Below, in pieces: positions 5,571 to 47,836 of a DNA stretch of 64,000 nt (position 1 is its first letter; each line of letters opens with the position of its first letter). A program made the translations under genes and the position numbers. The stretch lies in contig PCXQ01000001.1 in assembly GCA_002794035.1 (NCBI GenBank), positions 3,256 through 67,255 on the forward strand, given 5' to 3'. Below the pieces are notes generated by a model that was not told where the DNA came from, ran no database searches, and saw nothing but the letters and a program-made list of their open reading frames with translations. Origin of the DNA: Candidatus Yanofskybacteria bacterium CG10_big_fil_rev_8_21_14_0_10_36_16. GTDB taxonomy: Bacteria; Patescibacteriota; Minisyncoccia; 2-02-FULL-40-12; IGHO2-01-FULL-4-A.

Positions 5571-5593
5571 GTTATATTAATGATTATTAATGT

Positions 5594-7380: not shown

Positions 7381-9423
7381 TTGTTTAAATTAAGCTCAAA
7401 ATTTAAGCCTACAGGCGACCAGCCCCAAGCAATAGATAGGCTGATACGAGGAATTAAAACAGGCGAAAAACACCAGACGCTTTTAGGCGTGACGGGTTCC
7501 GGCAAGACCTTTACTATTGCAAACGTAATCGCGAATGTTAAAAAGCCAACTCTTGTAATATCTCATAATAAGACCCTTGCAGCCCAGTTATATCAGGAGT
7601 TTAAAGAGTTTTTTCCGGAAAATGCCGTTCATTATTTTGTTAGTTACTATGATTATTATCAGCCAGAGGCCTATATTCCCCATTCAGACACGTATATTGA
7701 AAAAGATGCCAAAATAAACGAAGAAATAGACCGTCTTAGACATGCTTCAACCCAAGCTCTTATAAGTCGAGACGATGTTATTGTTGTGGCCTCGGTTTCT
7801 TGTATTTATAACCTTGGTTCTCCTGAAGATTATGATAATTTGTGTTTGGATGTTGTTGAGGGTCAAAAAGTAAGGCCGGGAGAAATTGCTGGGCATCTTG
7901 CCAGATTGCAATACGGATATGAACTTGAGCTTAAAAGAGGTACTTTCAGGAAATCAACAAAAGAAATAGAAGTAGCATCAGCTACCGGCGATAGGATTAC
8001 AAAAATAAAATTTAAGGGCAATGTTGTAGAAAAAATATCAGTTGCTGACAACGTTGAATTAGATGACATATTTTATAAAGATCCTAAGTTTGAGAAGGTT
8101 GTTGAAACAAAAATATTCCCTGCAAAGTATTGGATTGCCACAAATGACAAAACTGATTTGGCTATACAAAACATAAGGGCAGAACTGCAAAAACACATTA
8201 AAAAACTAGACAAGGAGGGGCTTTATGTAGAAGCAGAGCGTCTTAAATCAAGAACCGAATATGATATGGATATGATCAAAACCGCCGGTTATTGTCATGG
8301 AATTGAAAACTACTCAAGCCATCTTGATTTTAGAAAACCCGGAGAACCTCCATATACACTATTGAACTTTTTTTCCGCCAAAGGTGGATCCGCCTCCGGA
8401 GGAAAGACTAAGGGAGATTTTTTAACAATAATAGATGAATCTCACATGACTATTCCTCAAATAAGAGGTATGTATGGCGGGGATCATTCAAGGAAGACAA
8501 CATTGGTTAAGCATGGATTCCGCTTGCCTTCTGCCATTGATAATAGGCCTTTAAAGTTTGATGAGTTTGAAAAAAAAATTGATCAGAGAATATATGTATC
8601 TGCGACCCCTGGTCCCTATGAGCTTAAAAAAACAAAGAAAAGCAACGTTGTGGAGCAGTTTGTTAGACCCACAGGACTTCTTGATCCAGTTGTAGAAATT
8701 AAGCCAACAAAAAACCAGATCCCCCATTTAATATCTGAGATAAAGAAAAGAAACGATAATAACCAAAGAACTCTTGTCACAACCATTACAAAAAGGATGG
8801 CGGAAGACTTGTCAGAACATTTGGCGGACGAAGGCATAAAAGTAAATTATATTCATTCGGAGATCAAAACTTTAGATAGGCTTGAAATCATAAGGGATTT
8901 GCGTCTTGGCAGATACGATGTTGTTGTAGGGGTTAATTTGTTGAGAGAGGGTTTGGATTTGCCCGAGGTATCTCTTATCGCTATTCTTGATGCAGACAAA
9001 GAGGGCTTTTTAAGAAATGCGACAACCCTGGTTCAGACAATGGGCAGAGCAGCAAGGCATATTGAGGGAAGAATCATAATGTATGCTGACAAGATAACAA
9101 AATCTATGCAATTTGCTATTGATGAGACAGAAAGACGTAGAAAAATTCAAGAGACCCATAATAAAAAACACGGAATAACGCCAAAAACTATCATAAAGGA
9201 GATAGGTCAAAATTATTTGCCGGCAGGAAAAGGAAAAAAAGAAAAGATAAGCCGTTGGACTAGTTATGATCCTAAAGACGAAGAAGAACCAGAGAAAATG
9301 CTTCCTGAACAGCGTCTTGAATATCTTGAAAAAGAGATGAAGAATGCGGCTAAAAGACTACAATTTGAAAAGGCTATGATTATGCGTGAAGAGGTTTTAA
9401 GGTTAAGAAAAGAAGTTGGCTAG
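7381..9423 (+). CDS. uvrB: Excinuclease ABC subunit B
   Basis: TTG start right after an in-frame stop. FKLSSKFKPTGDQPQAI, GVTGSGKTF, full UvrB helicase motifs and the C-terminal UvrB/C interaction helix. Confidence 0.9.
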   Translation: MFKLSSKFKPTGDQPQAIDRLIRGIKTGEKHQTLLGVTGSGKTFTIANVIANVKKPTLVISHNKTLAAQLYQEFKEFFPENAVHYFVSYYDYYQPEAYIPHSDTYIEKDAKINEEIDRLRHASTQALISRDDVIVVASVSCIYNLGSPEDYDNLCLDVVEGQKVRPGEIAGHLARLQYGYELELKRGTFRKSTKEIEVASATGDRITKIKFKGNVVEKISVADNVELDDIFYKDPKFEKVVETKIFPAKYWIATNDKTDLAIQNIRAELQKHIKKLDKEGLYVEAERLKSRTEYDMDMIKTAGYCHGIENYSSHLDFRKPGEPPYTLLNFFSAKGGSASGGKTKGDFLTIIDESHMTIPQIRGMYGGDHSRKTTLVKHGFRLPSAIDNRPLKFDEFEKKIDQRIYVSATPGPYELKKTKKSNVVEQFVRPTGLLDPVVEIKPTKNQIPHLISEIKKRNDNNQRTLVTTITKRMAEDLSEHLADEGIKVNYIHSEIKTLDRLEIIRDLRLGRYDVVVGVNLLREGLDLPEVSLIAILDADKEGFLRNATTLVQTMGRAARHIEGRIIMYADKITKSMQFAIDETERRRKIQETHNKKHGITPKTIIKEIGQNYLPAGKGKKEKISRWTSYDPKDEEEPEKMLPEQRLEYLEKEMKNAAKRLQFEKAMIMREEVLRLRKEVG

Positions 9424-11182: not shown

Positions 11183-11971
11183 CTAAAACTCTAACTGTTC
11201 TGCTTCAATTTGCACTATTTTGATTTTTGCTAGGCCGGTTCGTTTTGCCAGCCACACCCAAAACATGGTGATTGGTATTGTAAGCCACACGAATATAAAA
11301 CTCAATCCTTCAAGAACAAGAAATAAACCAAATGCTAAAATTGGAGGCATAAATTGGAAGTATGGCCCAACAAATTCTATGAACTGGTTTGTTACCTGCG
11401 TTATTAGTTGGTTTAGTGCCGATTCTCTTTCTTCTTCAGGCAACTCTCTTATTTCATCTCCCAAAAAAGTGCTTACAGTTCTTTCTATCACTTCATTTAC
11501 TGTGGGAGGAAGTTCTTTATTTGCTGCCTGGCTTTGTATTTTGGGGCTAAAGTAATATCCAAAAGATATCATAATAAAAAGAGGCATCATAACAATCGGC
11601 AACCCTCTTCTCATGATAAGGTGGGTATTTACTACATTTCTTTGTTCTTCCTCGTCTTTGATGATTTTGCCCGCATATAAATGGACCAAAAGGGATAACC
11701 CAACACCTATAAAGAAAAAGTAATTAAAGCCGAAAACTAAGAAAAATGGCAATACAACTGCAAGGGATATCCCTAGTCTTTCAAGGGACTTTCTCATTAA
11801 AAGAAAAGACATAGCTACTAGAGACGACAATACGAGGAGTCCCACTAGAGGTTGAATCCAAGCTTCAGCAACAGCAAAAAGAGATGAACCATAAAGCCAG
11901 GGTTTTGTAACAGCCCAAAACCAAGTAGATAGCGCAAGAATTATTATAAGTGTAATTGGTTTTTTATACAT
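11183..11971 (-). CDS. Polytopic membrane protein of unknown function, between dnaK and dnaJ
   Basis: 262 aa; about 6 TM segments and an acidic loop. Confidence 0.45.
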   Translation of the reverse strand: MYKKPITLIIILALSTWFWAVTKPWLYGSSLFAVAEAWIQPLVGLLVLSSLVAMSFLLMRKSLERLGISLAVVLPFFLVFGFNYFFFIGVGLSLLVHLYAGKIIKDEEEQRNVVNTHLIMRRGLPIVMMPLFIMISFGYYFSPKIQSQAANKELPPTVNEVIERTVSTFLGDEIRELPEEERESALNQLITQVTNQFIEFVGPYFQFMPPILAFGLFLVLEGLSFIFVWLTIPITMFWVWLAKRTGLAKIKIVQIEAEQLEF

Positions 11972-12111
11972 GCTTATATTTTAACACAATTTAATTTTTG
12001 CAGCTTCAACAATTACAACATTTTTATCAGCATCAGCGCCTTTATCGGTGAGTATGGTTTATAACATCCCAGCCCCGCCGAAGCAGAGCTGGGATGTTAG
12101 GGTTTTTTGTT

Positions 12112-14052
12112 TTATTCATTTTCTTGCCCTGGGTTTGTTTGTGGTGAGGAATCAGAATCTGTCGAAGGGTTTTCTTCTTTTGATGTTTTGGTTTCCTTAT
12201 TGCCTTCTGCCTCGCCATTTTTGGGCTCGGCATCTCCGGCACTTCCAGCACCTCCGGCATACATTGCTTGGCCTACTTTTTGAACTGATTGTGATAATTC
12301 TTCTGTAGTTTTTTTGATTTCATCTGTGTTATCGCTGTCCTTTGCTTTCTTTAGGGCCTCAATTTTTTCTTCAATTTCTTTTTTGTCTTCTTCTTTTAAT
12401 TTGTCGCCTGCGTCTTTAAGGGCTTTTTCAGACGAGTAAATCAAAGTTTCGGCCATATTTTTTGTTTCAACTGCTTCTTTTTTCTTTTTATCTTCCTCTG
12501 CGTGTTTTGCTGCTTCTTCTGTCATTCTTTTCTTTTCTTCATCAGTTAAACCTGATGAACCTTCAATCTTTATTGATTGTTCTTTGCCTGTGGCTTTGTC
12601 CTTTGCTTTTACGTTTAGTATTCCGTTGGCATCAATATCAAAGGATACTTCAATTTGAGGAACGCCACGAGGTGCTGGAGGAATACCGTCAAGAATAAAC
12701 CTACCTAAGGTTTTGTTATCAGCAGACATTGGTCGTTCACCTTGCAAGACGTGTATTTCAACAGACGGCTGATTGTCAGCGGCAGTTGAATAGGTTTGTG
12801 TTTTTGAAGTCGGCACAGTGGTGTTTTTCTCTATCATTCTTGTCATCACACCGCCCAATGTTTCAATACCAAGTGATAAAGGCGTAACATCAAGCAAAAG
12901 TACGTCTTTGACATCACCTTGCATAATTCCTCCTTGAATAGCTGCTCCCATTGCCACAACTTCATCAGGATTAATATCTTTGTGGGGCTCTTTGCCAAAA
13001 AGTTCTCTTACAGCACTAACTATTGCAGGCATTCTGGTTTGTCCCCCAACAAGTATCACTTCGTTAATATCTGATGGTTTAAATCCAGCGTCTTCAATTA
13101 CTTTATTGGTAATATCAATTGATTTTTTAATATGCCCCTCAACTAATGATTCAAGCTTTGCTCTTGTGAAATTAATGTTAAAATGCTTGGGTCCTGATGA
13201 ATCAGCAGTCAAGAAAGGTATATTGACGTCGCTTTGGTTTGTGGTTGATAGTTCGTGCTTGGCTTTTTCTGCAGCATCTTTTAAGCGCTGTAGAGCCATT
13301 TGGTCTTTTGAGACATCGATTCCTTGGTCTTTTTTAAATTCTTCAGCAAAATAATCAATTATGTGCTGATCAAAGTCATCTCCCCCAAGGTGAGTATCGC
13401 CTCCTGTTGATTTTACTTCTATTGTGTCTTCAGATACTTCAAGCACGGAAACGTCGAAAGTTCCTCCACCAAAGTCGTAAACAACTATTTTTTCATCTTT
13501 TTTCTTGTTAAAACCGTAAGCTAAAGCAGCGGCTGTTGGCTCGTTGATTACCCTTTTTACTTTAAGGCCTGCAATTTCGCCCGCATCTTTTGTGGCTTTT
13601 CTTTGAGAGTCGTCAAAGTATGCCGGTACAGTAATAATGGCTTCTTCTATTTTTTCACCTAGTTTGTCTTCGGCATCTGCTTTTAATTTTTGCAAAATCA
13701 TAGCTGATATTTCAGCAGGCTTGTAGTTTTTGTCAGCCATTTTTATTTCTACTGCACCATGAGAACCCTCATGGATGTCATAAGGTAATGTTTTCTTGTC
13801 ATGTTGGACTTCGGGGTCTGAAAATCTGCGTCCAATAAGGCGCTTGGCAGAAAATATAGTGTTAGTAGGATTTGTTACCGCCTGTCTTTTTGCTGTAATT
13901 CCTGCATAACGATCTCCGTTCTTACCTATGGCTACTATTGAAGGCGTTGTTCTCATGCCTTCCTTGTTTTCTAAAATTCTTGGCTGGCCTGCGTCTACTA
14001 TAGCCATGGCGCTGTTTGTTGTTCCTAGGTCTATTCCTAATATCTTGGGCAT
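12112..14052 (-). CDS. dnaK: Chaperone DnaK (Hsp70)
   Basis: [28 protein letters not shown]; C-terminus extended with a low-complexity tail. Confidence 0.95.
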
Positions 14053-33721: not shown

Positions 33722-34366
33722 TTAAGAATCGTTTAATCTTTTGAGGCCCTTGGCGCTTTCAATATGTGACCTCCGGCTCTTTTTGTCCTTTATATCGGCG
33801 TTTTTGATAATGCTACAAATCTCGTCCCTTTCACTGTCAGACAATACCAAATCAGTATATTGTCTGATTTTTTCTACAGTATCCCTGCCATTACCGACTG
33901 TATCCGTACCAGTAATTTTAAGCTTATCCGCAGACGGGAAAATTATAAATGAATAAATGGGAGTATTTTGAAATCGCGGCTTTATTAGTGCCTCTATTGC
34001 TTTGGTGTGGGCGTAATTTTGCCTTAATGGATTATAGAATCTGCTCTTTCGTCTATAAATAACTTGGGTCCAGTATTGATCGCTGGCTTTACCGAAAATC
34101 CATCCAGAATAATCTTTCGTTTCAATGCAAAAAATTCCAAATCTTGAAACTATGATGTGATCAATTTGAGTTGTGCTTGTATTGCCGGTTGAAGGCAACA
34201 AAACGTCGCTTAGATTTATATACTGTTTAGGATCCAGCCCTGTCAGTTTTTTGTTTACAAATCTTTCGCCTAGCCAACCTTTCCATTGCGGAAACTTATA
34301 TTTAACCCACTGAACAATGAGATAAAGAAATCCAAACCAAATTAGTAAATATATAATGTTTTTCAA
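33722..34366 (-). CDS. NERD (nuclease-related domain) protein, membrane-anchored
   Basis: N-terminal TM helix, then IDHIIVSRFGIFCIETKDYSGWIFG (NERD core). Confidence 0.7.
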   Translation of the reverse strand: MKNIIYLLIWFGFLYLIVQWVKYKFPQWKGWLGERFVNKKLTGLDPKQYINLSDVLLPSTGNTSTTQIDHIIVSRFGIFCIETKDYSGWIFGKASDQYWTQVIYRRKSRFYNPLRQNYAHTKAIEALIKPRFQNTPIYSFIIFPSADKLKITGTDTVGNGRDTVEKIRQYTDLVLSDSERDEICSIIKNADIKDKKSRRSHIESAKGLKRLNDS

Positions 34367-34389
34367 TTTATAGTTATTGATGTATTTAG

Positions 34390-35724
34390 TTAGAAGGCAT
34401 GTCGCTCATTTTTTGTGATTTTTTGTAAAAACATTTTTTGTTGTTTTTTCTTTTGTAACCAACCCAACTTACACAAATCAGTTACTACTGACTGGGATAT
34501 TTTATATAGTTGTTTATCTAAATCAATCACCGTATTATCAACTTGTAATGCCAAATCATTCAAGCCCATTAATTTGATACCATTTAGTGTTCTAACGCGG
34601 GATAGAGCCACATAACCCATCCCGTAAGTAAATGACTTGCTAAGGTCAATTTCTGCAGCGTCTAAGCTCATCCCTTGGCTCTTGTGGACCGTAATAGCCC
34701 AAGCAAGCCGCAGGGGTACTTGGCTTATCTCCGCTTTTATAAGGTCATTTTCTTCAACGGTCCAACTTGTTGGCCGAGCTGCCACTTCTTTGCCTTTAAT
34801 TGTTTTGATAATAGGATAACTATCACCATCAAAATCAATTACTTTGCCCAATGTTCCATTAACATATCCTTTATCAAAATTGTTCTTTACAAACATTACT
34901 ACGGCATCCTTTTTTAAGGTAAGCTCTTCCGGAGCCAAGCAGCCTTTTTTCAATGATTCTACAAGATATTTTTCACCCCTGCATTGCATTTTATAAGTTT
35001 TTGGTTCGCTTTCAATTTTATTAAGTTCAAAGTTATTAATTGCATCCACATCAACATTATGAGTATAAAGTTTGGTAGGAGTTATATTAGTAACGGCCGG
35101 TTTGTTAAACCGGCTTGTTAAAAGACCAAGTGATGTGTCAGATGTTTTGCCAGCTCTTATATCATTTAACACATTAAGAAAATTAAGATCTTGTTGCCGG
35201 TATTGTTCTGTCAGATAGCAAATCTTTATATTCATGTTCTCCCAAGCTTTAGATGTGTGTATAAAACTATCATCTTCACCATTTTTTGATACTGGCGGTA
35301 ATTGAAAAAAGTCTCCGGATAAAATTACCTGCAAACCGCCAAATGGCAAATCATTTTTCTTAAACGCTTTGCAAACCTTATCTACCATGTCTAATCGGAA
35401 TGAGTGAAGCATTGAAACCTCGTCTATTATTAAAACTTTTGTTTTTAGGAATCTTGCTCGGAAGTTAATATTTTTAAGTAACTTTGATAAATGATCATCG
35501 GTAATCTCGTTTTGTATTCCTAATCCCGCCCAAGAGTGTATTGTCCGGCCATTCATATGAGTTGCGGCAATGCCGGTTGAGGCGGTTATACCAACGCCAA
35601 TATTTTTCCCTTTCAGAAAGTTGATATACTTGTTTAATAAAAAAGTTTTCCCGCTTCCAGCGGGACCAGTTAGATACACATTATGTCCAAGTTTTAATAT
35701 ATCTAAAGCTTCCTGTTGGGTCAT
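34390..35724 (-). CDS. PIF1/RecD-family SF1 DNA helicase
   Basis: GPAGSGKTF Walker A, DEVSM, GDFFQLPPV, C-terminal RecD/Pif1-like SH3 region. Confidence 0.75.
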   Translation of the reverse strand: MTQQEALDILKLGHNVYLTGPAGSGKTFLLNKYINFLKGKNIGVGITASTGIAATHMNGRTIHSWAGLGIQNEITDDHLSKLLKNINFRARFLKTKVLIIDEVSMLHSFRLDMVDKVCKAFKKNDLPFGGLQVILSGDFFQLPPVSKNGEDDSFIHTSKAWENMNIKICYLTEQYRQQDLNFLNVLNDIRAGKTSDTSLGLLTSRFNKPAVTNITPTKLYTHNVDVDAINNFELNKIESEPKTYKMQCRGEKYLVESLKKGCLAPEELTLKKDAVVMFVKNNFDKGYVNGTLGKVIDFDGDSYPIIKTIKGKEVAARPTSWTVEENDLIKAEISQVPLRLAWAITVHKSQGMSLDAAEIDLSKSFTYGMGYVALSRVRTLNGIKLMGLNDLALQVDNTVIDLDKQLYKISQSVVTDLCKLGWLQKKKQQKMFLQKITKNERHAF

Positions 35725-35743
35725 AAATTAAAAACTTAAAAAC

Positions 35744-37531
35744 TTAAAAACTTTGATAATACTCCCTTATCATATTAGCCATTAATTTTTGTCTTTCTTC
35801 CAGAAATTTTTGATAATCAGTAACTTCCATATCTAACACACTTACTGGTATGGCATTTTCTTTCAAGTTGTTTTCAAGCTCATTCTTGTCTTTAATGCCA
35901 CTGTATTTGAAAACCCCATTTTCAAGATGTTCCAATATTTCAGTAAAGTATTGTTTGGGTGATTTTGCTCCGATTTTGATATTAATTTCACTTTGTGTGT
36001 AGGCAAAATTGGCTATTTGGTTGTAATCTCTCTGTTTTAGCTTGTTGCTTTCAAGATATTTTTTGGGAAATATATGGTGTATATCTCCACGATGTATAAT
36101 CATATCTCGTACTTTTATATCAGTGGAAAGAAAACCTCTTTTTCCTAATTTTACTTGTGCTGCCCAAAAAAGTTTTAAGTACGGACTGGATATACTAGAT
36201 TTAACTAAATCGCGCACCAGACCTTCTGACCAGAATGTATCTGATAATTCAGCCCTCTCTATTCCTTCAAGATATTTTTCAGCACGCTGCTCAACGATGT
36301 TTCTTATATCTGTATCAAATTGGCTTTCGGGAGACCCAGAGTATCTTCCTATTAGCAGCGACATTATGAGCCACTTGCTAACTATACGCTCTATTTCAGA
36401 ATCATTGTATTCTTGTGATCTCAATTTGAGATATAAAATATAAGCAAAGTTTAAAGCATTTTTTGAACGAATTAACCCGCTTACTTCAAACCCCGCTGCC
36501 TTAACTATCATAGAAAAGCGTTCATAATGAGTTTTGTTTACAAAATCTAATACGCCGTTTTTTAATTTATTATAAGAATCCTCAACGATGGCTTCTTCGT
36601 AAGCCCTTGTTTCAAAGTTTCTACCAGATAGTAAACTTACCAAATCCCTCAACCTTCCGCGATTAAACTCTTTAGTAAAGCCAACCCTAATAATATCGGT
36701 ATAATCTGGTTGATAAATGTCATCCTGCAAGTTTTTGGCCCAAAGTATTTTTTGATAATATTCTGTATTAGTAAAGTCATCACTGGCGGATTTAATATTT
36801 TCAATAAACTCCGGATGTCGCAGAGTATGCGCAAAGTAATCTATTGCTTTTCTTAGATTTATCCCAAAATCTCCAAATGCTGCGATTCGTGACATTGCAA
36901 AGTCGGCCTGACTTAACACAACCCCCTCGGAGTTAATCCTGATAAATATTTCAGTAACCGTTTCTATATCAAGATTTTCTTTTAACTCTATAAATCCGAG
37001 CTGCTTATCTTTGATAGAATAAAGCTTGTCAATGTTGTTTTGAATGGTTTGTAAGTCTGCTTTTGGATTTCTTTTTTTGTATTCGTCTACAAGCGCAAAA
37101 ATACCTCCCTCATTTTTCAAAAACTCCGAAATATCACCAATCCAATTAACATCTTTTTCAATCGCGGGTGTTAATGTTTCAAACTTTTCCTCAATGGGAT
37201 TGAAGGCAATCCTGATTCTCATTTTTCTATATTCCTTGTCTAAAACTTCTTCTCCGAGAATGGCTGCTCTTAGTGCCGTAATTCGCTGCTGTCCGTCTAT
37301 AACAATTTTTTTACCGGATGATAAACTGCCATCTTTTAGACGAATAGATGGGTTACGCCATACAATTATGTAGCCAACAGGAAAGCCTTTATAGATAGAA
37401 TCCATCAAATCCCTCACTTTAATTGAACTCCACACAAAGGGTCGTTGAATCTCTGGTATAGCAATTTCATTGGACTGAACCCAGCTTAAAATGTCTTTAA
37501 TAAAATATTGATTTATAATGTATTGTTGCAT
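35744..37531 (-). CDS. GmrSD-family Type IV restriction endonuclease (DUF262 + DUF1524)
   Basis: N-terminal IPEIQRPFVW and IDGQQRITAL (DGQQR, DUF262); C-terminal IHHIFPKKY His-Me finger (DUF1524). Start set at the MQQYI ATG, 4 bp after the res stop. Confidence 0.8.
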   Translation of the reverse strand: MQQYIINQYFIKDILSWVQSNEIAIPEIQRPFVWSSIKVRDLMDSIYKGFPVGYIIVWRNPSIRLKDGSLSSGKKIVIDGQQRITALRAAILGEEVLDKEYRKMRIRIAFNPIEEKFETLTPAIEKDVNWIGDISEFLKNEGGIFALVDEYKKRNPKADLQTIQNNIDKLYSIKDKQLGFIELKENLDIETVTEIFIRINSEGVVLSQADFAMSRIAAFGDFGINLRKAIDYFAHTLRHPEFIENIKSASDDFTNTEYYQKILWAKNLQDDIYQPDYTDIIRVGFTKEFNRGRLRDLVSLLSGRNFETRAYEEAIVEDSYNKLKNGVLDFVNKTHYERFSMIVKAAGFEVSGLIRSKNALNFAYILYLKLRSQEYNDSEIERIVSKWLIMSLLIGRYSGSPESQFDTDIRNIVEQRAEKYLEGIERAELSDTFWSEGLVRDLVKSSISSPYLKLFWAAQVKLGKRGFLSTDIKVRDMIIHRGDIHHIFPKKYLESNKLKQRDYNQIANFAYTQSEINIKIGAKSPKQYFTEILEHLENGVFKYSGIKDKNELENNLKENAIPVSVLDMEVTDYQKFLEERQKLMANMIREYYQSF

Positions 37532-37535
37532 AAAT

Positions 37536-40217
37536 CTATTTTTCCCAAAGTCGGGCCGCTTCATCAAAGCTTTTCGGCTTCTGTGATAGCTTATCCCAAT
37601 CTTCTTGTTTAATATAAAGCATTTTGTATTTAACGTCGTTCTGAATACTATTAACATCTTTTATCCATTGTTCCAAGCGTTTTATTTTCTCAACATCGTC
37701 TAAGTCTTCGCGGCCTTTGGTTTCTATGATGTACACTTCTTTTTCTGAAACCTTTACGAAAAAGTCCGGGTAGTAATTTGAAATATCACCACTGGCATTT
37801 CGGTAATCAATCCTAAAATTAACTGCGAAGTAGTTTTTAGCATAAGAAATTATATCTTCCACTCCATCAAGAAAACCGGCAAACTCAAGTTCAAAATGCC
37901 CATCTCCAACTATTTTATTAAATGCGCTTTTCTTCGGTACAAGATATGCTTGATCCTTCACGACAAATGGTCGGCTCTTACTAATCTTAATATAATTTTG
38001 GATCTCGGCCTCGCCCTTATCTACCACGGTCAATTCGTTTATCTTCTTCTTAAATGTTTCTGTTACTGTTTTGCTGGCTTCAAGCTCTGACAAATTACGC
38101 AAAGCATTAAGATCGTCCAACTGTATTTTTTTATCAAAAAGGTTGTTTTCAATAAACTCTTTTACTTGGCCGTATAGAATATCATAACCGCTAAATAACC
38201 GAAGCTCTTTCATAATAACATTGGTAAAATACCCTATAACACTTTGGTAATCTGGTATGAAATTACTATCTAACTCTGTCTTGTGAGTTATATCACCGCT
38301 GGTAATATCCCTGAATATAATTTCGCGCTTTTCTTCTTCTGAAAACTCCTTTAATTTAACTTTCTTGTGACCAAATGTTGAAACATCAAGGTCTGAAAGG
38401 TTTTTATATTCCCGATAAATACGCGGTGTAAGAATGGGTATTTGAATATCTAACCTCGGTATATCTTTTTTGGTGTTTTCATTATCAACCTCAACAACCA
38501 AAGGAGCTTTAGGTTCTGTGCCTTCTCCCATTTTTCTGTGCTCAAGCTCAACACCTTCACTTTTAATAGATTCCACAAAATCCATAAAAGCATCTGTGCC
38601 CACTACACTAACTAATTCCGGCACTTCTTCGTTGCGATACATTCGTCTTAACCCTCTTCCAAGTGTTTGTTCTGGCAATATGTTGCTCTTTGAAGAATAA
38701 GGCCGCAATCCAACAATGGTTGTAACATTACGGACATCCCAACCTTCTTTAAGCATTAACACGGAAACTATGGCCTTATAAGGATTATCAAAATTATCAA
38801 TCTTGTTTGCTGCTTCCCGCAGCTTTTTTAATTCCTCCTCATTTTTCCCAGTTGCGCTTTCGGATATTTCACCGTTATTTTTTGTATGAATTACTAATAC
38901 AGAGTTTTTAAACTCCGGATAAGTATTTTCAAGATATTCAGCAACTTCATCACCGTTCTTAGTATCGTCGGTCATTAAAAACAAAACTGCTTTTTTGCCC
39001 AGTTTTATATGTTCATCATAAACCTTTTTCCACTCCAAATAACCGAGATGGACATAGTCCTTGTATTTCTCACTGAACTTTGAACTTTTATGCTCTTGTA
39101 GCTTGGCTCGGCTTGCAGAATCGGGCAGGACCGGACGCTTTACTACGTTTTGGTGAATGGCTTCAACCAATGGGTAATCGCTTATTGTTTGAACAAATAT
39201 AGCTCCGTTATTATGTCTTGGGGTAGCTGTTACATCAATTTGTAAAGATAATTCTTTGCCTTTCATCTTGAGACGATTGTGTATATCTTCTATGGACTTA
39301 AACCACGCTAAACGGCCATCGTGGATATGGTGCGCTTCATCATTTAGTACAACCAGCTCATCTATATCTCTAACTATTACCCCAAGATCAACTTTTGATT
39401 CATTTGTTGCGCCAACTGGTTTTTCGCCAAGAAAATATCGGGCCGTGTTTTCATCTTCAAAACTCGCAGCACTGCTATTACTCTCATAAACCCGATGAAT
39501 GTTAGTTAGAAAAATGTTTCCAGTTTTTTTAACTACACCTATTTCGTCTTGAATATGCAAAGTTAATTGAAAATCATCCCGCCAATTTTGGCCTGCAAAA
39601 CCATTATCCGGAAGTACCGGGTCTTCAAAAAATATCTTTAAGCCGTCAAAATCAGACCTGATACGGTCTAAAACAATAATGTTGGGGGTGATAACCAAAA
39701 AGTTTCGGGCTAATTTTGAATCCTCTTCATAAAGTTTATGAAAGAAGCTCCAAGCAAGAAGTAAACTTAACACCTTTGTCTTGCCGCTTCCGGTTGCCAT
39801 TTTTATTACGAAACGTAACCAGGATTCTTCAAACATTCCTGCTGAAACTGCTCCGGAACTATCAAATCTTATAAGGTCGTATTTATCTTTTACTTTTGCT
39901 ACTTCGTGGAGATAAATGGTTGTTTCTACTGCTTCTCTCTGTCCAAAATAGTATTGAAAAAGAAAGGTCTCTCCATCTGTATTTTCTCTTGGGTGGTCTA
40001 TTTTAAACCACCATTTAAGTAACGCTTTACTTGTTTCACTTGCCCCTTCATAATCAGCATCTCGCCATTCTTTGACCTTCCTACGAAGTTGATCCACTAA
40101 AGGCGGTAAAAGCCGAGCATAGCCCTGTTCTCTTAATGTCTCGTCTGCCGGAAACCACCGGAGGTCCGGGTTTAAAATCTCGTGAGGTGATTGTGGAAAC
40201 TTAGGGTGTAGTGCCAT
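37536..40217 (-). CDS. res: Type III restriction-modification Res subunit (SF2 helicase-nuclease)
   Basis: MATGSGKTKV Walker A, NDEAHH DEAH box, C-terminal endonuclease region; downstream of mod. Confidence 0.8.
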   Translation of the reverse strand: MALHPKFPQSPHEILNPDLRWFPADETLREQGYARLLPPLVDQLRRKVKEWRDADYEGASETSKALLKWWFKIDHPRENTDGETFLFQYYFGQREAVETTIYLHEVAKVKDKYDLIRFDSSGAVSAGMFEESWLRFVIKMATGSGKTKVLSLLLAWSFFHKLYEEDSKLARNFLVITPNIIVLDRIRSDFDGLKIFFEDPVLPDNGFAGQNWRDDFQLTLHIQDEIGVVKKTGNIFLTNIHRVYESNSSAASFEDENTARYFLGEKPVGATNESKVDLGVIVRDIDELVVLNDEAHHIHDGRLAWFKSIEDIHNRLKMKGKELSLQIDVTATPRHNNGAIFVQTISDYPLVEAIHQNVVKRPVLPDSASRAKLQEHKSSKFSEKYKDYVHLGYLEWKKVYDEHIKLGKKAVLFLMTDDTKNGDEVAEYLENTYPEFKNSVLVIHTKNNGEISESATGKNEEELKKLREAANKIDNFDNPYKAIVSVLMLKEGWDVRNVTTIVGLRPYSSKSNILPEQTLGRGLRRMYRNEEVPELVSVVGTDAFMDFVESIKSEGVELEHRKMGEGTEPKAPLVVEVDNENTKKDIPRLDIQIPILTPRIYREYKNLSDLDVSTFGHKKVKLKEFSEEEKREIIFRDITSGDITHKTELDSNFIPDYQSVIGYFTNVIMKELRLFSGYDILYGQVKEFIENNLFDKKIQLDDLNALRNLSELEASKTVTETFKKKINELTVVDKGEAEIQNYIKISKSRPFVVKDQAYLVPKKSAFNKIVGDGHFELEFAGFLDGVEDIISYAKNYFAVNFRIDYRNASGDISNYYPDFFVKVSEKEVYIIETKGREDLDDVEKIKRLEQWIKDVNSIQNDVKYKMLYIKQEDWDKLSQKPKSFDEAARLWEK

Positions 40218-40218
40218 A

Positions 40219-40614
40219 TTAGGTCAATCTGTAGATATATGCGTCTTTAATAAAAATACCGTTAATGATGTTTGATTTAAATCTAATACCTGCTTTTGAC
40301 TGTTTTGATGTTTTTATCATTGTTCTCAAAAGTTTCAGAAAGTCATTATCGTGATGAAGTATTGTTATATTTGAAAGTCCGATGTCTTTTACTGTTTTTT
40401 CTTCCCCGAATTGATTGATGAAATCATTATAATTTTGCCGCGTATTTTTAATACGGTCATATTTTTTTGATGAAATTAATAATCTCCAAGCATCTGACTC
40501 GGGAACAAGTATCCAAAGAAAAACCGTTGGATTTATTTTTTGTTTATCCATCAAATCTAATAAGGTTTTTCCACTTTCAATTTTTGGTTCTTCTACCATA
40601 ATTTTTTTATCCAA
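40219..40614 (-). CDS. Hypothetical protein, partner of the HEPN protein (possible toxin/antitoxin component)
   Basis: 131 aa. Overlaps the HEPN gene by 22 bp and ends 1 bp before res. No clear MNT GS-x-D-x-D motif. Confidence 0.4.
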   Translation of the reverse strand: MDKKIMVEEPKIESGKTLLDLMDKQKINPTVFLWILVPESDAWRLLISSKKYDRIKNTRQNYNDFINQFGEEKTVKDIGLSNITILHHDNDFLKLLRTMIKTSKQSKAGIRFKSNIINGIFIKDAYIYRLT

Positions 40615-41030
40615 ACTAAAATACCCTTACGCCTATCTTTTATTGAGTTGATTAAAGCTTCTGCGTCAGTTTTCTTGCATATTCCATATCTGCTTTCTTC
40701 GGTCCAATCTTTAACCGTGCTCCAATTTGACTCAAAGCCCTTATCTTTGCCTGCTCTCTTATCAAAGGCCCACTTGATACCACTTACACTCAATAAGTCG
40801 TTTAAATCGTGACTATAGAGTTTCTGATAAACACTCTTTTTTGGAGGGAAGCTCTTTTCTTTGACATTTTTGCAATAGCAAGCCTTGAGGGCAAGTTCAA
40901 CGGCATAACCTGCTAAATAGTAAGCACCACTATACTCCTTATTATTAAAAAGGGTTATCGCTTCTCTGATGCGCCTCAATGCTAACTTTTTAAAATCACC
41001 GTATTCTGGATTGTCCCAAAATAAAGCCAT
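40593..41030 (-). CDS. HEPN-domain protein
   Basis: AYYLAGYAVELALKA helix and YSHDLNDLL motif typical of HEPN. Confidence 0.55.
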   Translation of the reverse strand: MALFWDNPEYGDFKKLALRRIREAITLFNNKEYSGAYYLAGYAVELALKACYCKNVKEKSFPPKKSVYQKLYSHDLNDLLSVSGIKWAFDKRAGKDKGFESNWSTVKDWTEESRYGICKKTDAEALINSIKDRRKGILVWIKKLW

Positions 41031-41033
41031 ACT

Positions 41034-43371: not shown

Positions 43372-43785
43372 CTAAACGAGAAATTGAGCGACAAACCAGA
43401 TGCCGGCAGTAATTAAAAACCATATCAACTGATTGGCTTCCCTAAAATCTCCGGAGCGGTAGTAGCGGCCAACTTGGGTTACGGTAAATATCGCGGCAGT
43501 CATCGGGATAAAGTTAAATGGAATATCAAATCTAAAGGACACGAGATAATATACGATTATTAAAGCTACCGCTTCGGAAAAACCCGAAAAGCGTGATTTT
43601 AAAATATCGCTATGTTTATCTAACAACCCTTTGAATGGGGCATAAATGAACATAGCAATAATTGGACTAATGGCTGCGATATAAAACAATGAGAATAAGG
43701 CCCATAAGAATGGCAAAAATATAAAAGAAGAAATAATAACTATACCCCATAGCAGTAAACTAATTTTTGATTTTATTACATCCAT
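43372..43785 (-). CDS. Hypothetical 4-TM membrane protein
   Basis: Start taken at MDVIKSK. The track's upstream extension is encoded by the hairpin cluster. Confidence 0.35.
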   Translation of the reverse strand: MDVIKSKISLLLWGIVIISSFIFLPFLWALFSLFYIAAISPIIAMFIYAPFKGLLDKHSDILKSRFSGFSEAVALIIVYYLVSFRFDIPFNFIPMTAAIFTVTQVGRYYRSGDFREANQLIWFLITAGIWFVAQFLV

Positions 43786-44012
43786 AAAATTACAAAACCC
43801 GCCGCTAGGCGATGGATTTCTCCACCTGTTACCCTTTCGGGTAACAACCACTGCTGGTGCTCCTAAACGACGGGTTTAGTACCCAGCAGTGGTTTTTACG
43901 TCATACCTCAAATGTTGACATTTTGAGGGTTAGGCAATTTTTAGTTGTTAGACCAATATTATCACAAAACCTTGAAAATCTCCATAATTTTCGTTTTACT
44001 TAAATTAATACT

Positions 44013-44768
44013 ATGGCCTTAATTAACGACAAACAATTTAAACAATTTTTAGAACTCCTAATAAATAAGGTTGAATTAAGAAACGATATTCATTTGGGAA
44101 TACAATACCGTGAATTAATCCAAATATTTTTAGATGATAACGCTATCAAAGATTATTTGCGCTATTCTGAAAATAAGAAGTTGTTAAAATTAATAGGCAT
44201 ATCTAAATATAAAGAAAAGGAAGATCCTTACCCTGATGATTATTATATAAACGAGATAACGCCTAACAATGATTTTATAGGCCCGAAAAGATATTATGCC
44301 GTAAAGAGGTATATACGGTATAATTTCTACCCAAAGGACAACTTTATACTTGATGTGTCTGATAAAAAAATTAAAGGTTTTTATAAGCAGTATCAAAAAG
44401 AAGGTCCGGGGCAAGACCCAAAACGGCTAATTTCCAAAAATAAAAGTGCTTATTTTTATAAATCAAAACAAATAGTTTTTGACAGTGAAGAAACTGACTA
44501 CTTCAGAGTATTTGATGTCCTTTACGAAAATAGTGGGCAAGACAACTTTTTGTCATATGAAAATATAGATAAAGAAATGGTCCGAAGGGGCTCGCCAAAA
44601 CTTATAGATGATCAACAAAAAATTAAACGTATTCATAATGCAGTTAAGAACTTATTTTTATATTCTCGTTGCGGAAGTGAAAAGCTAAAAAATACTACGC
44701 CCAATAAAACTGAACTAATAAAAAAGGTTAGAGGGAGAGGGTGTGTTTTCAATAACCCTCTAATTTAA
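44013..44768 (+). CDS. Hypothetical protein (first gene of the plus-strand element module)
   Basis: 251 aa; Lys/Tyr-rich; no motif recognised. Confidence 0.35.
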   Translation: MALINDKQFKQFLELLINKVELRNDIHLGIQYRELIQIFLDDNAIKDYLRYSENKKLLKLIGISKYKEKEDPYPDDYYINEITPNNDFIGPKRYYAVKRYIRYNFYPKDNFILDVSDKKIKGFYKQYQKEGPGQDPKRLISKNKSAYFYKSKQIVFDSEETDYFRVFDVLYENSGQDNFLSYENIDKEMVRRGSPKLIDDQQKIKRIHNAVKNLFLYSRCGSEKLKNTTPNKTELIKKVRGRGCVFNNPLI

Positions 44769-44792
44769 TAAGTTATCTCTCAATTTCTTGTG

Positions 44793-44820
44793 GACAGCCA
44801 AATATCGGCTGTCTTTTTTT
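44793..44820. terminator. Intrinsic terminator
   Basis: GACAGCC-aaatatc-GGCTGTC followed by T8. Confidence 0.7.
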
Positions 44821-44899
44821 CTTTTTTTACTTGGTTTTAGCGGCCAAAGAGATAAACGGAGAAATTAAAAGATATTAAATATTGATTCAAAATTAAATT

Positions 44900-45526
44900 A
44901 TGCAACCAATAATTAAAACTTTTACTGAACCGGATTGGGATTATCTGTTTTGGACTTGGGATTTAGAAAAACAATGGCAGGAGTCATTGCCAAGGCCAAC
45001 TGAACGAGAGTTGTTAGGTATTTTCCCGGAAGCAAAAAAGATATTGCCGGCATTATTAAGGGACTGGCAACAAAGAAAAAGTGAATTAACCAAAGAACTG
45101 GCTCGGAAATTAAAAATAGTAAAACTTGGCGCGGATAGCGACAGCGAAAGATTTTTCTGGACTGAATGGCTGAAAACAAAATATTTAGGAGAAATTACTG
45201 AAATCGTTAATGACATTAAAAAGTTCAAGAGAATGATGGCTATATCAAACAACCGGGGCCGAGCCTTACGAAGCGAAGAGTCATTGCAAAAGGCTTTAGC
45301 TGTGCCAATAGCATCGGCTATCCGAATTAAACTAAGAAAATTGGGTAATAAACTTGTTGGGCTGTGTCCCCTACATAACGAGAGTAACCCATCATTTTAT
45401 ATCTATACCGATACTAATTCCTTTTATTGCTACGGATGTGGCAAGGGTGGAAATGTAATCAACTTGGTTAGATTTCTACACGATTACACATTCCCAGAAG
45501 CAATAAAGTATTTAACTAATTTATAA
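44900..45526 (+). CDS. CHC2 zinc-finger (DnaG-primase-type) protein
   Basis: C-terminal CPLHNESNPSFYIYTDTNSFYCYGCGKGGNVINLV matches the primase CHC2 Zn-binding module. Confidence 0.6.
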   Translation: MQPIIKTFTEPDWDYLFWTWDLEKQWQESLPRPTERELLGIFPEAKKILPALLRDWQQRKSELTKELARKLKIVKLGADSDSERFFWTEWLKTKYLGEITEIVNDIKKFKRMMAISNNRGRALRSEESLQKALAVPIASAIRIKLRKLGNKLVGLCPLHNESNPSFYIYTDTNSFYCYGCGKGGNVINLVRFLHDYTFPEAIKYLTNL

Positions 45527-45609
45527 CTTTTGTTTCTTGTTCGGGCTCTTGGCAAAGGCCATAGTAAGCTCCGGCCAGGAGCTCAAACAAGAAACGCGGA
45601 GCTTACTTT

Positions 45610-47154
45610 ATGTCAAACAACCAAAACAATGAAAAACAAAATAAGGAAGGGCGGAAACCACAAGCAACCAAAATCGTAGAATTGGTCAGTGAAAGCAACA
45701 TAACCCTATTCCATAACGAGTTAAAACAGCCCTATGCCTATATTGAAATAAATAACCATAGCGAAATATGGCCCTGTGAAAGCAGGCAATTTAAGGACTG
45801 GCTGGGACACATATTTTGGAATAACGAAGGAAAATCTGCCTATCCTAATGCGATAAACGGTGCGCTATCAACATTAAGAGCCAAGGCGCTTTACGAAGGA
45901 CAGAAGTATAAACTAAACAACCGAGTAGCAATCAAAGACGGTGCAATTTGGTATGACCTTTCTAACAATAACTGGGAAGCGGTCCGTATAAGCAAAAATG
46001 GATGGCGAATCATAGGCAACCCTCCTATCATATTTCAGCGCTTTTCTCATCAGCAAGAACAATTAACCCCGGTACCAGAAGGAAATATAAAGGATGTCTT
46101 ATCGCTAATCAATGTAAAAAAAGAACACCAACTGCTTTTATTGGTTTACTTAGTATCCTGTTTTATTCCGGACTTTCCCCATCCGATATTGGTGGTTCAC
46201 GGGCCTCAAGGCTCATCAAAATCAATGCTATCCAAAGTTCTTAAAAGCTTAGTTGATCCATCTGTATTAGAAACTTGCGACTTCCCTGCAAGTAAAGCGG
46301 AACTGGCTCAAATACTATCCCACCATCACTATGTTGTCTTTGATAATCTCTCGTACCTATCAGATTCAAATTCCGACATTCTATGCCGTGCTGTTACCGG
46401 AGGAGGATTTTCAAAACGGGAACTCTACACGAACGACGAAGACGTAATACACCTATTTAAGCGTTGCATAAACCTCAACGGCATAAATCCGGTGGCAACA
46501 AAACCAGACCTGCTAGAACGAAGCATATTACTGGAATTAGAAAGGATACCCAATGAAAAAAGGAAAAAAGAGACAGATATTTTGCAGCAATTTGAAACCA
46601 AGAGACCAGAAATATTAGGGGCAATCCTAAACACAGTTGCCAAAGCAATGGAGATTAAAGAATCAATAAAAGTAACTGGATTGCCGCGGATGGCGGATTT
46701 TACAGAGTGGGGTTGCGCTATCGCTGAAGCAATAGGACATCCAAAAGAAGAGTTTTTATCTTCTTATTTTGAAAACATAAAGTCGCAAAATGACCAGGTT
46801 ATTTATGATAGCCCTGTTTGCAGTACTCTTTTGAGCTTAATGAAGGAGCGAGAGCAATGGAATGGAACAGCAACGCAACTTTTATCTGAGTTAATTGAAG
46901 AGGCGGAAAGGTTAAATATCAACACAAAAGAAAAAGGCTGGCCCAAATCAGCAGCGTCATTAAGCGGTAAATTAAATAACTATAAAACCAATCTTGAAGA
47001 AGCCGGTATAAAAATAAATCGTTTTGATGAAAACAGGCAAAGACAATTATCTATCAGCAATGATTCTGCTATTGAGAGCCAGGCCGGCAACGGATTAGCC
47101 GAAGAAGACGATAGAGACGCTGCAACGCTCTCAACGCTCTTTCCCGAGCATTAA
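45610..47154 (+). CDS. P-loop NTPase replication protein (phage/plasmid primase-associated SF3-helicase-like)
   Basis: VVHGPQGSSKS Walker A; hhhhDN Walker-B-like VVFDNL. Sits next to the CHC2 primase finger gene. Confidence 0.5.
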   Translation: MSNNQNNEKQNKEGRKPQATKIVELVSESNITLFHNELKQPYAYIEINNHSEIWPCESRQFKDWLGHIFWNNEGKSAYPNAINGALSTLRAKALYEGQKYKLNNRVAIKDGAIWYDLSNNNWEAVRISKNGWRIIGNPPIIFQRFSHQQEQLTPVPEGNIKDVLSLINVKKEHQLLLLVYLVSCFIPDFPHPILVVHGPQGSSKSMLSKVLKSLVDPSVLETCDFPASKAELAQILSHHHYVVFDNLSYLSDSNSDILCRAVTGGGFSKRELYTNDEDVIHLFKRCINLNGINPVATKPDLLERSILLELERIPNEKRKKETDILQQFETKRPEILGAILNTVAKAMEIKESIKVTGLPRMADFTEWGCAIAEAIGHPKEEFLSSYFENIKSQNDQVIYDSPVCSTLLSLMKEREQWNGTATQLLSELIEEAERLNINTKEKGWPKSAASLSGKLNNYKTNLEEAGIKINRFDENRQRQLSISNDSAIESQAGNGLAEEDDRDAATLSTLFPEH

Positions 47155-47186
47155 TAAAACAAGGGGTACTACCCATAACTTAAGTT

Positions 47187-47558
47187 ATGCAGTGTAAATA
47201 CATAAAAAATAATAAAAAACAGTGCGGAGCAAACGCAATGCTCAAAAACAGTTATTGCTTTTATCATAATCCGGATGTCAAAAAAGCAGATAAAAAAGAG
47301 GCTCAATCAAGAGGTGGTAAGGGCAATAAAAGTAGAGTTAGTGAAACTCTTCCGCCAATAACTTTCAAGAAGTCCCGAAACGTCGTCGGATTGCTTGAGG
47401 AAACTATTAATTTGGTTAGGGCAGGAAAAATGGAAATACGAGTTGCTAACTGCATAGGATACTTGTCGGGCCACATCATCAAGGCAATTGAGGTTTCAGA
47501 GCTTACGCAACGCCTACAGGAAGTTGAGAAAAAAATAGAAATAAAATGGCAGGAATAA
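47187..47558 (+). CDS. Hypothetical protein with N-terminal Cys cluster
   Basis: CKYIKNNKKQCG...CFYH. Confidence 0.3.
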   Translation: MQCKYIKNNKKQCGANAMLKNSYCFYHNPDVKKADKKEAQSRGGKGNKSRVSETLPPITFKKSRNVVGLLEETINLVRAGKMEIRVANCIGYLSGHIIKAIEVSELTQRLQEVEKKIEIKWQE

Positions 47559-47836
47559 CTTTATCTACAATAAAAAGATTAGAGAAAAAAGCCGAAGAAT
47601 TAAGGGCGGCAAATCCAATAGTGGACCGGGTCATAACTGTTCCTTGGCCTTTAGAGATTTATAGCGAAGAGGGAGAAAGATTTATCCAAGAGGAAATTGA
47701 GCGGCGAAATCAAATTAGGAAAGAATCCGGTATTTATTCCGAAGGTCCTTTCTACGTGATTATGCCGGGTAGAATGCCTCAATGGGTGGCCGAAGAAGAA
47801 TGGAGGAAACAAGAAGAGGCAGAGAAACTTAAATAA
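47546..47836 (+). CDS. Hypothetical protein
   Basis: 96 aa, overlaps the previous gene by 13 bp; charged and helical. Confidence 0.3.
   Translation: MAGITLSTIKRLEKKAEELRAANPIVDRVITVPWPLEIYSEEGERFIQEEIERRNQIRKESGIYSEGPFYVIMPGRMPQWVAEEEWRKQEEAEKLK

Follow-up and report, generated by a model that had tools for sequence, protein, structure and literature searches.

A HEPN-partner gene pair at the variable mod-res junction of a Type III restriction-modification operon in a Yanofskybacteria genome

The DNA analysed here (the window) is a stretch of 64,000 nucleotides (nt) from Candidatus Yanofskybacteria bacterium CG10_big_fil_rev_8_21_14_0_10_36_16 (contig PCXQ01000001.1, positions 3,256 to 67,255 of the forward strand). 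Its minus strand carries a Type III restriction-modification (R-M) operon in which two small genes separate mod, encoding the methyltransferase (Mod), from res, encoding the restriction subunit (Res). In canonical Type III R-M systems mod is followed directly by res, whereas here 816 bp with two genes intervene. The first of these genes encodes a HEPN-domain protein and the second a small protein that we refer to as the partner (Table 1). A 3-bp spacer separates the mod stop codon, which ends at 41034, from the HEPN ATG at 41030; the HEPN stop codon (40593-40595) lies beyond the partner TTG start (40614), giving a 22-bp overlap; and 1 bp separates the partner TAA (40219-40221) from the res ATG (40217). 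Read from mod to res, the three junctions thus measure 3, -22 and 1 bp. A first-pass annotation of the same DNA had described this arrangement, and all of its coordinates match those found here, as do the HEPN motifs that it quoted, AYYLAGYAVELALKA and SHDL, both of which are present in the 145-amino-acid (aa) open reading frame (ORF). It had also allowed that either small ORF might be mis-called. The HEPN protein has more than 1,464 homologues, the partner has 1,068 homologous cluster representatives, and the structure model of the partner reaches a predicted local distance difference test score (pLDDT) of 94.6, so that both can be taken as real genes.

Table 1. Features of the operon and of the gene pair within it (window positions).
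Feature	Position	Strand	Role or state
mod, Type III R-M methyltransferase (Mod), 749 aa	41034..43283	minus	first gene of the operon
HEPN-domain protein, 145 aa, HEPN-T/AbiV-like type	40593..41030	minus	predicted RNase/toxin component
partner protein, 131 aa (TTG) or 126 aa (ATG 40599)	40219..40614	minus	predicted HEPN-binding neutraliser or regulator
res, Type III R-M restriction subunit (Res), 893 aa	37536..40217	minus	last gene of the operon
overlap of HEPN 3' end and partner 5' end, 22 bp, translational coupling	40593..40614	minus	
cargo slot, 816 bp, mod stop to res ATG	40218..41033	minus	occupied by the HEPN-partner pair

Profile searches bore out the reading of the flanking genes as Type III mod and res. 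Mod matches Pfam N6_N4_Mtase (PF01555, 1.9e-47) and PADLOC MTase_III (2.3e-117). Res combines a helicase core, matched by Pfam ResIII (PF04851, 1.7e-15, residues 131-334), with a C-terminal nuclease domain (TnsA-like and RE_endonuc matches, residues 762-856), and it also has a PADLOC REase_III match. Its homologues, which number more than 8,000, carry the database name 'type III restriction endonuclease subunit R'; identity to it is 76-82% among the 120 best-listed, and all of those with a named source come from bacteria of the Candidate Phyla Radiation (CPR). Database records place the HEPN and Res copies of the window in a groundwater genome of Candidatus Yanofskybacteria. Because of the methyltransferase matches of Mod and the helicase and nuclease matches of Res, we assign the flanking genes to a Type III R-M system.

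Two start codons can be considered for the partner. The TTG gives the 131-aa form, has a purine-rich AAGGG 9 nt to its 5' side, and yields an N-terminal length that fits the family consensus better than that of the ATG form. The in-frame ATG at 40599 would give a 126-aa protein with a 7-bp ATGgTAG overlap with the HEPN gene, and it is the start used in the database copy of the partner (P0001). Because of the upstream AAGGG, the consensus N-terminal length and the recurrence of the 22-bp overlap among homologous loci (described below), the TTG call is plausible, with the ATG start as the alternative. The space between mod and res has no room for a promoter or terminator belonging to the pair, and a promoter and terminator scan found no terminator-like site on the minus strand from the 3' region of mod to the end of res, although its hits did not exceed those in shuffled sequences, so that the scan says little. 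Because the pair sits exactly between the mod stop codon and the res ATG, it is in all likelihood transcribed together with mod and res. Rfam searches found no RNA family within the cassette. The GC content of the partner gene is 0.285 (0.25 at third codon positions), compared with 0.365-0.377 for HEPN, Mod and Res and a window average of 0.361.

The assignment of the 145-aa protein to HEPN, first made by eye from its letters, held up in a profile search: Pfam PF05168 matches residues 13-125 with 29.1 bits (E 1.2e-6), above the gathering score of 22. The protein consists of the HEPN domain only and has no ABC-ATPase N-terminal domain. It also matched PADLOC PDC-M28A (2.1e-6) and AbiV (8e-4, 17 bits); with the curated NCBIfam AbiV model TIGR04498 it scored 13.5 bits, below the cutoff of 27, and a PDB sequence search with the HEPN profile gave no meaningful match. 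Conservation was read from an alignment of 21 homologues from several phyla, in which the invariant positions include R20, E45, K49, H74 (within SHDL), W103, W109 and the run S113-R114-Y115. The canonical Rx4-6H motif is absent, because none of the 21 aligned members has a His 4-6 residues after R114. A conserved His N-terminal to the Arg, as in the AF0298/AbiV type, is present as the invariant H74. AF0298-like HEPN-T proteins and AbiV likewise keep the motif Arg with a strongly conserved His N-terminal to it, and these two residues have been proposed to form an alternative active site (PMC3710099). By these sequence features the protein is of the HEPN-T/AbiV-like, alternative-His type, and the invariance of R114, H74 and E45 across phyla matches the proposed alternative active site.

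We then turned to the partner. A word-index search returned 4 homologues only, and a profile search of 1.84 billion cluster representatives returned 1,068 at E<=1e-3 and 362 at E<=1e-10. The best-listed 150 homologues are nearly all single-domain proteins of ~120-140 aa, with a few fragments or proteins of up to 185 aa. Near-invariant residues are G10, L17, D18, W29, W38, Y57, R106, D119, Y123 and R124, and the C-terminal motif is DAYIYR; the proteins have a single alpha/beta domain. Searches with the window protein and its relatives found no match in Pfam, PADLOC, NCBIfam or PDB sequences, and 141 family members submitted to Pfam one by one had no match either, including none to NTP_transf. 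The search for known toxin-antitoxin (TA) families that the first-pass annotation had recommended thus placed the HEPN protein in PF05168 and placed the partner in no family. A tblastn search of phage GenBank with the partner gave no match.

These results bear directly on whether the pair could be a HEPN/MNT (HepT/MntA) system of the canonical kind, with the partner acting as a minimal nucleotidyltransferase (MNT) that AMPylates the HEPN protein. Comparison of the fold of the partner model gave MNTs as the best matches, but weak ones. The GS/DxD catalytic signature is not among the conserved partner residues, in line with the earlier remark that the 131-aa ORF lacks the GS-x-D-x-D signature of MNTs, and hhalign of the partner against PDB MNTs gave a probability of 0.1. 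The lack of the motif, of NTP_transf in 141 members and of an hhalign match rules out a canonical MNT; the HepT/MntA explanation is largely refuted by sequence, and we consider it very improbable. A distant, catalytically dead MNT-like origin of the partner is possible. The searches point to a new, undescribed family of ~1,000 clusters at 50% identity, whose members would be obligate partners of HEPN proteins.

The association of the two genes was then followed across genomes. A partner-seeded genome scan returned 50 loci from more than 10 phyla (Planctomycetota, Acidobacteriota, Bacteroidota, Chloroflexota, Deinococcota, Bacillota, Nitrospirota, Methylomirabilota/Rokubacteria, Desulfobacterota, Actinomycetota and Pseudomonadota). 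A HEPN gene lies immediately 5' of the partner on the same strand in 46 of the 50, and in 38 of these 46 the two overlap by exactly 22 bp. The order HEPN 5', partner 3' holds in the window and in all 46 paired loci. Two of the four loci without a full HEPN gene have HEPN-like fragments at the contig start (strong in L042, marginal in L052), and in a third the contig is cut at the partner itself. The fourth (L039, Desulfobacteraceae, 1160-1728) keeps a HEPN remnant, cut to the last ~35 codons (...GVLPWIKKRW*), with the overlapping partner intact. Conversely, every HEPN-seeded lookup found a partner of ~125 aa downstream of the HEPN gene, and one Nitrospirales contig (L026) has two copies of the pair ~4 kb apart (7561-8387 and 11593-12420). 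Two small, co-oriented, overlapping genes that move together make up the generic type II TA architecture, which the pair shows; its two genes form a module that is obligate and translationally coupled.

A metagenome scan with a close alignment returned only three loci, one of them new. Separately, a partner homologue with 52% identity and a C-terminal extension stands on a phage-like contig (L002, 1028-1471); a gene for a terminase large subunit lies 1 kb away, no HEPN remnant is present, and the homologue may be a phage-borne antidote. Partners that stay intact without HEPN, as in L039 and L002, would fit an antitoxin role.

The genomic settings of the pair are varied. Within 8 kb of the partner, Mod or Res was detectable in 0 of the 50 genome loci. 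The neighbours of these solo pairs are housekeeping or metabolic genes (UPF0047, LysE, BrkB, E1 dehydrogenase, NrdR, acylphosphatase, EF-P, SDR and DctP), and the surroundings are syntenic within lineages, Planctomycetota and Acidobacteriota included; in several Planctomycetota the pair lies syntenically between UPF0047 and LysE genes. It is also found on the 13.9-kb Acinetobacter johnsonii plasmid pAJ4131, where it adjoins a BrnT/BrnA toxin-antitoxin pair, and on three IMG/VR contigs. Settings of this kind raise the question of whether the pair could be a non-toxic housekeeping or RNA-binding module with an inert HEPN domain, a hitch-hiker at the mod-res junction with no link to restriction. 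This explanation draws on the lack of a canonical Rx4-6H in the HEPN protein, on the synteny among housekeeping genes in Planctomycetota and Acidobacteriota and on the lack of R-M genes near any of the 50 genome copies. It can be weighed against the R-M cassettes related to that of the window.

The same insertion was sought, as the first-pass annotation had proposed, in related Type III loci, and HEPN-seeded lookups found it in other CPR-type cassettes together with a DUF3800 gene. In L007-L010 the order is Mod (as two ORFs), HEPN, partner, DUF3800 and Res, and in L070 it is the same with a single Mod ORF; in L001, HEPN, partner and DUF3800 are followed by a more distant ResIII protein. The split Mod orthologue, of 310 aa plus 397 or 412 aa (L007 3843-5988), occurs in four related Hainich groundwater contigs, and the split may reflect a frameshift or phase variation.

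We also inspected four Res orthologues (79-80% identical to that of the window) that were picked irrespective of cargo. Where mod and res abut through a TAATG overlap (L074), the slot is empty. In L075 it holds a 203-aa protein (5385-5996) with the RNxxxH motif IRNLFAH, in L076-79 a 267-aa protein (L076 5186-5989) with the RNxxxH motif LRNSLTH, and in L080/81 three proteins, namely DUF6864, one of 216 aa and a PIN_12/PIN_8 nuclease (L080 2884-4992). Slot lengths over the related cassettes are -1, 620, 811, 816 (the window), 1670, 2042 and 2121 bp. The C-terminus of Mod, DIFGNDT(M/T)..I(E/D)...*, and the N-terminus of Res, MALH(P/K).FP, are conserved, with the cargo exactly between them in every case; the Mod C-terminus DIFGNDTMKIIEISI* is kept in all related cassettes. 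Among the Type III cassettes of this CPR lineage, the mod-res junction is a cargo slot whose content varies.

The 203-aa and 267-aa slot proteins had no match in Pfam, in a PDB sequence search or with hhalign. Of the ORFs of similar size in the fetched loci, 2.6% contain the RNxxxH hexapeptide, and this motif alone is a hint that the two proteins may be HEPN-like. Beside several of the related cassettes lie a gene for a large serine recombinase (Resolvase/Recombinase/Zn_ribbon_recom; L076 1453-2775, L080 7689-8990) and a ParB-methylase gene, and because these genes adjoin several relatives, the Type III cassettes are suggested to ride on mobile elements.

Sequence identities separate the history of the pair from that of the cassette. 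In an identity matrix the pair most similar to that of the window is the solo pair of L003 (HEPN 69%, partner 75%), and the one most similar to the L007 pair is the solo pair of L011 (HEPN 61%, partner 65%); pairs inside and outside R-M cassettes are intermixed, and the embedded ones are not mutually closest. The window Res is 79-80% identical to those of cassettes with other cargo, as against 63-66% to those of L007 and L070, which carry the HEPN pair. Because the nearest relatives of Res carry other cargo while those of the pair are solo pairs, the pair moves as one unit among R-M slots and other genomic sites, by repeated entry into the slot or by exchange. Co-divergence of the cassette as one unit, a reading of the identities between the window and L007/L070, was dropped, since closer Res orthologues hold different cargo and the pairs interleave.

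Several of these observations speak against an inert hitch-hiker. R114, H74 and E45 are invariant across phyla, and the pair fills the R-M slot in at least three separate cassettes whose pairs are not one another's closest relatives. The other occupants of the slot are nuclease-type (PIN) or carry RNxxxH, and the pair is also present on plasmids and viral contigs. We therefore regard the hitch-hiker explanation as distinctly unlikely.

A further question is whether the pair works with additional nucleases. On a Deinococcus plasmid (NZ_CP140099, L072 5989-7371), a 460-aa protein joins the partner domain (residues 1-125) to DUF3800 (residues 156-376), and it is preceded, with a 22-bp overlap, by a HEPN-like 135-aa protein. 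In Rokubacteria (L028, 7989-9329), a 446-aa protein consists of the partner domain and a C-terminus of ~320 aa with LRCDIVH (Rx4H), and it follows a HEPN gene with a 7-bp overlap. A separate DUF3800 gene lies 3' of the partner in L001 (814-1452), L007-10 (L007 6810-7547) and L070 (2523-3317). DUF3800 has been described as RNase-H-like and has been tied to type VII retrons and to RNA- and tRNA-targeting CRISPR effectors; it is accompanied by many distinct structured RNAs. Gaps of 110-350 bp after the DUF3800 genes are candidate sites for such RNAs, and Rfam found none there at the gathering threshold.

These fusions and neighbours, and the description of DUF3800 as an RNase-H-like accessory of retrons and RNA-targeting CRISPR systems, would be accounted for if the pair were a two-component sensor/effector defence system in which the partner links HEPN to effectors that are nucleases, for example DUF3800; the copy in the window would then be a minimal version with HEPN as sole effector. 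The window copy indeed has no DUF3800. The great majority of pairs, however, have no third gene and are followed by metabolic or housekeeping neighbours, the DUF3800 proteins of L001, L007 and L070 have no detectable mutual similarity by BLASTP, and the HEPN remnant of L039 and the orphan partner of L002 fit an antidote better. A sensor/effector system consequently seems a doubtful explanation to us, if a less remote one than an inert hitch-hiker. As a general third component DUF3800 was ruled out: at the genome loci, ten neighbours that lie downstream on the same strand proved to be metabolic genes.

The explanation that we favour, with a probability of roughly 60%, is that the pair is an autonomous, mobile HEPN toxin/neutraliser pair that is carried as cargo by the R-M system and serves it as a backup or stabilising module. 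The HEPN protein would be an RNase-like toxin with R114/H74 as its alternative active site, and the partner would bind it and neutralise, gate or otherwise regulate it; because the catalytic motifs are absent, this would not occur by MNT-type AMPylation. Captured exactly between the mod stop codon and the res ATG and probably co-transcribed with the R-M genes, the pair could provide a second-line, abortive-infection-type, RNA-targeting backup for cases in which restriction fails or host expression is shut off, with HEPN released once phage infection or loss of the cassette stops the resupply of the neutraliser. It could also, or instead, be an addiction module that stabilises the R-M cassette. 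Such a logic would be analogous to that of PrrC in the EcoprrI locus. The toxin and neutraliser roles are proposed because of what is known of the HEPN family (PMC3710099), the truncated HEPN of L039, the phage-borne orphan partner and the plasmid setting; that HEPN cleaves RNA and is toxic, that the partner neutralises it and that the pair is functionally tied to restriction are thus predictions from sequence and by analogy. The first-pass annotation had proposed a toxin/antitoxin or abortive-infection module built into the R-M operon. This reading has the most support, the pair being obligate, coupled, mobile, adjacent to BrnTA in one setting and twice represented by the partner alone, whereas its tie to R-M does not extend to the family, which is not R-M-specific.

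Several points weigh against the toxin/neutraliser explanation. RNase activity would be an extrapolation for a HEPN subfamily that lacks the canonical motif, and non-catalytic HEPNs have also been allowed for (PMC3710099). The partner has no DNA-binding domain for autoregulation, and the HEPN-first gene order is the reverse of that in typical MNT-HEPN and most type II TA pairs. The evidence from orphan partners comes to two cases. Fusion of the partner domain to DUF3800 or to an Rx4H domain suggests a role as adaptor or regulator beyond that of a mere antidote. The synteny between UPF0047 and LysE genes looks like stable vertical inheritance rather than the behaviour of a selfish TA system, and the linkage to R-M could be hitch-hiking, because none of the 50 genome loci has a nearby Mod or Res.

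We also considered a broader proposal, namely that the mod-res slot is dedicated to the exchange of cargo for RNA-targeting abortive infection (HEPN pairs, PIN trios, RNxxxH proteins and DUF3800), with the expression or activity of this cargo wired to the integrity of the R-M operon, and that the partner represents a new HEPN-regulating domain, possibly a dead MNT descendant, that also docks nucleases such as DUF3800. We hold this proposal to be tentative and on balance rather improbable; if true, the slot cargo and the partner family would amount to a previously unrecognised, widespread defence and toxin family.

The operon lies among other genes of interest. Downstream of res, on the minus strand, are genes for GmrSD (35744-37657), a PIF1-like helicase (34390-35724) and a NERD protein (33722-34366), and because of these the region is a defence island that continues past res (33722-37657). 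Read from its first ATG, the GmrSD ORF overlaps the 3' end of res by 122 bp, and because of this overlap its true start is probably a later Met. A full-length match to the LOOT RNA (Rfam RF03000, 43811-43936 minus) scores 86.2 bits, where the gathering score is 46.4, and lies ~530 bp 5' of the mod start codon on the strand of mod. The RNA overlaps a 159-aa ORF without Pfam match (43372-43851) in the 5' part of that ORF, whose start may for this reason be mis-called. Beyond it, a divergent gene block on the plus strand (44013-47836) encodes a CHC2 zinc-finger (DnaG-type) protein (44900-45526) and contains several ORFs without Pfam match, one of 514 aa; this block may be an integrated element beside the R-M cassette.

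Few HEPN genes in R-M operons have been characterised, and we know of no characterised example in Type III systems or in CPR bacteria. If the proposed roles hold, the partner family would represent a novel type of neutraliser or regulator of HEPN proteins in place of the classical MNT, and it is tied to DUF3800, a recurring, unexplained accessory of RNA-targeting defence systems. The related Type III cassettes, with the slot empty or differently filled, offer a natural comparative and experimental series for the contribution of the cargo to restriction.

Among known systems, the HEPN-T (PF05168)/AF0298-like and AbiV-like proteins are close to the HEPN protein described here, which shares with them the Pfam match, the Arg without a downstream His and the invariant upstream His (H74). 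With respect to the HEPN-T/AF0298-like systems, the differences are that the partner is not an MNT and that it is encoded 3' rather than 5' of HEPN. The antitoxin of AbiV is an RNA, the abiV2 transcript (10.1101/2024.05.05.592566), whereas the downstream element here is a conserved protein-coding gene. HEPN/MNT systems (HepT/MntA; Shewanella SO_3166/3165; Aphanizomenon PDB 7ae2) likewise pair a small HEPN protein with a small alpha/beta protein, and the best, if weak, fold matches of the partner are MNTs; in the present pair, however, the partner lacks GSx(n)DxD and any profile similarity to MNTs, the HEPN protein lacks RX4HXY, and the gene order is reversed. The PADLOC candidate system PDC-M28 is matched by the HEPN protein through PDC-M28A (E 2e-6 for the window, 3e-8 for L013), whereas no PADLOC model, and hence no second component of PDC-M28, matches the partner; a literature search found no mention of PDC-M28.

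The closest parallel in organization is PrrC in the Type Ic EcoprrI R-M locus, likewise a HEPN-superfamily protein encoded inside an R-M operon, and PrrC-EcoprrI is the model of an RNA-targeting second line tied to a DNA-targeting first line. PrrC, however, is a large protein in which an ABC-ATPase is fused to HEPN; it belongs to a Type I system, and the R-M complex itself keeps it silent. Here, by contrast, the Type III operon holds a stand-alone HEPN protein of 145 aa that comes with its own partner. At least 16 HEPN clades, HEPN-T among them, have been linked to R-M operons with a PrrC-like model (PMC3710099), and HEPN genes in such operons were predicted in 2013 to be PrrC-like second-line defences (Anantharaman et al. 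2013, PMC3710099). That HEPN genes, including HEPN-T, are embedded in R-M operons has thus already been published. What is new here is an undescribed partner family in place of an MNT, with the reversed gene order and the fixed 22-bp overlap, the link of this family to DUF3800, and the mod-res junction of Type III systems in CPR bacteria as a hot spot with alternative, nuclease-type cargo.

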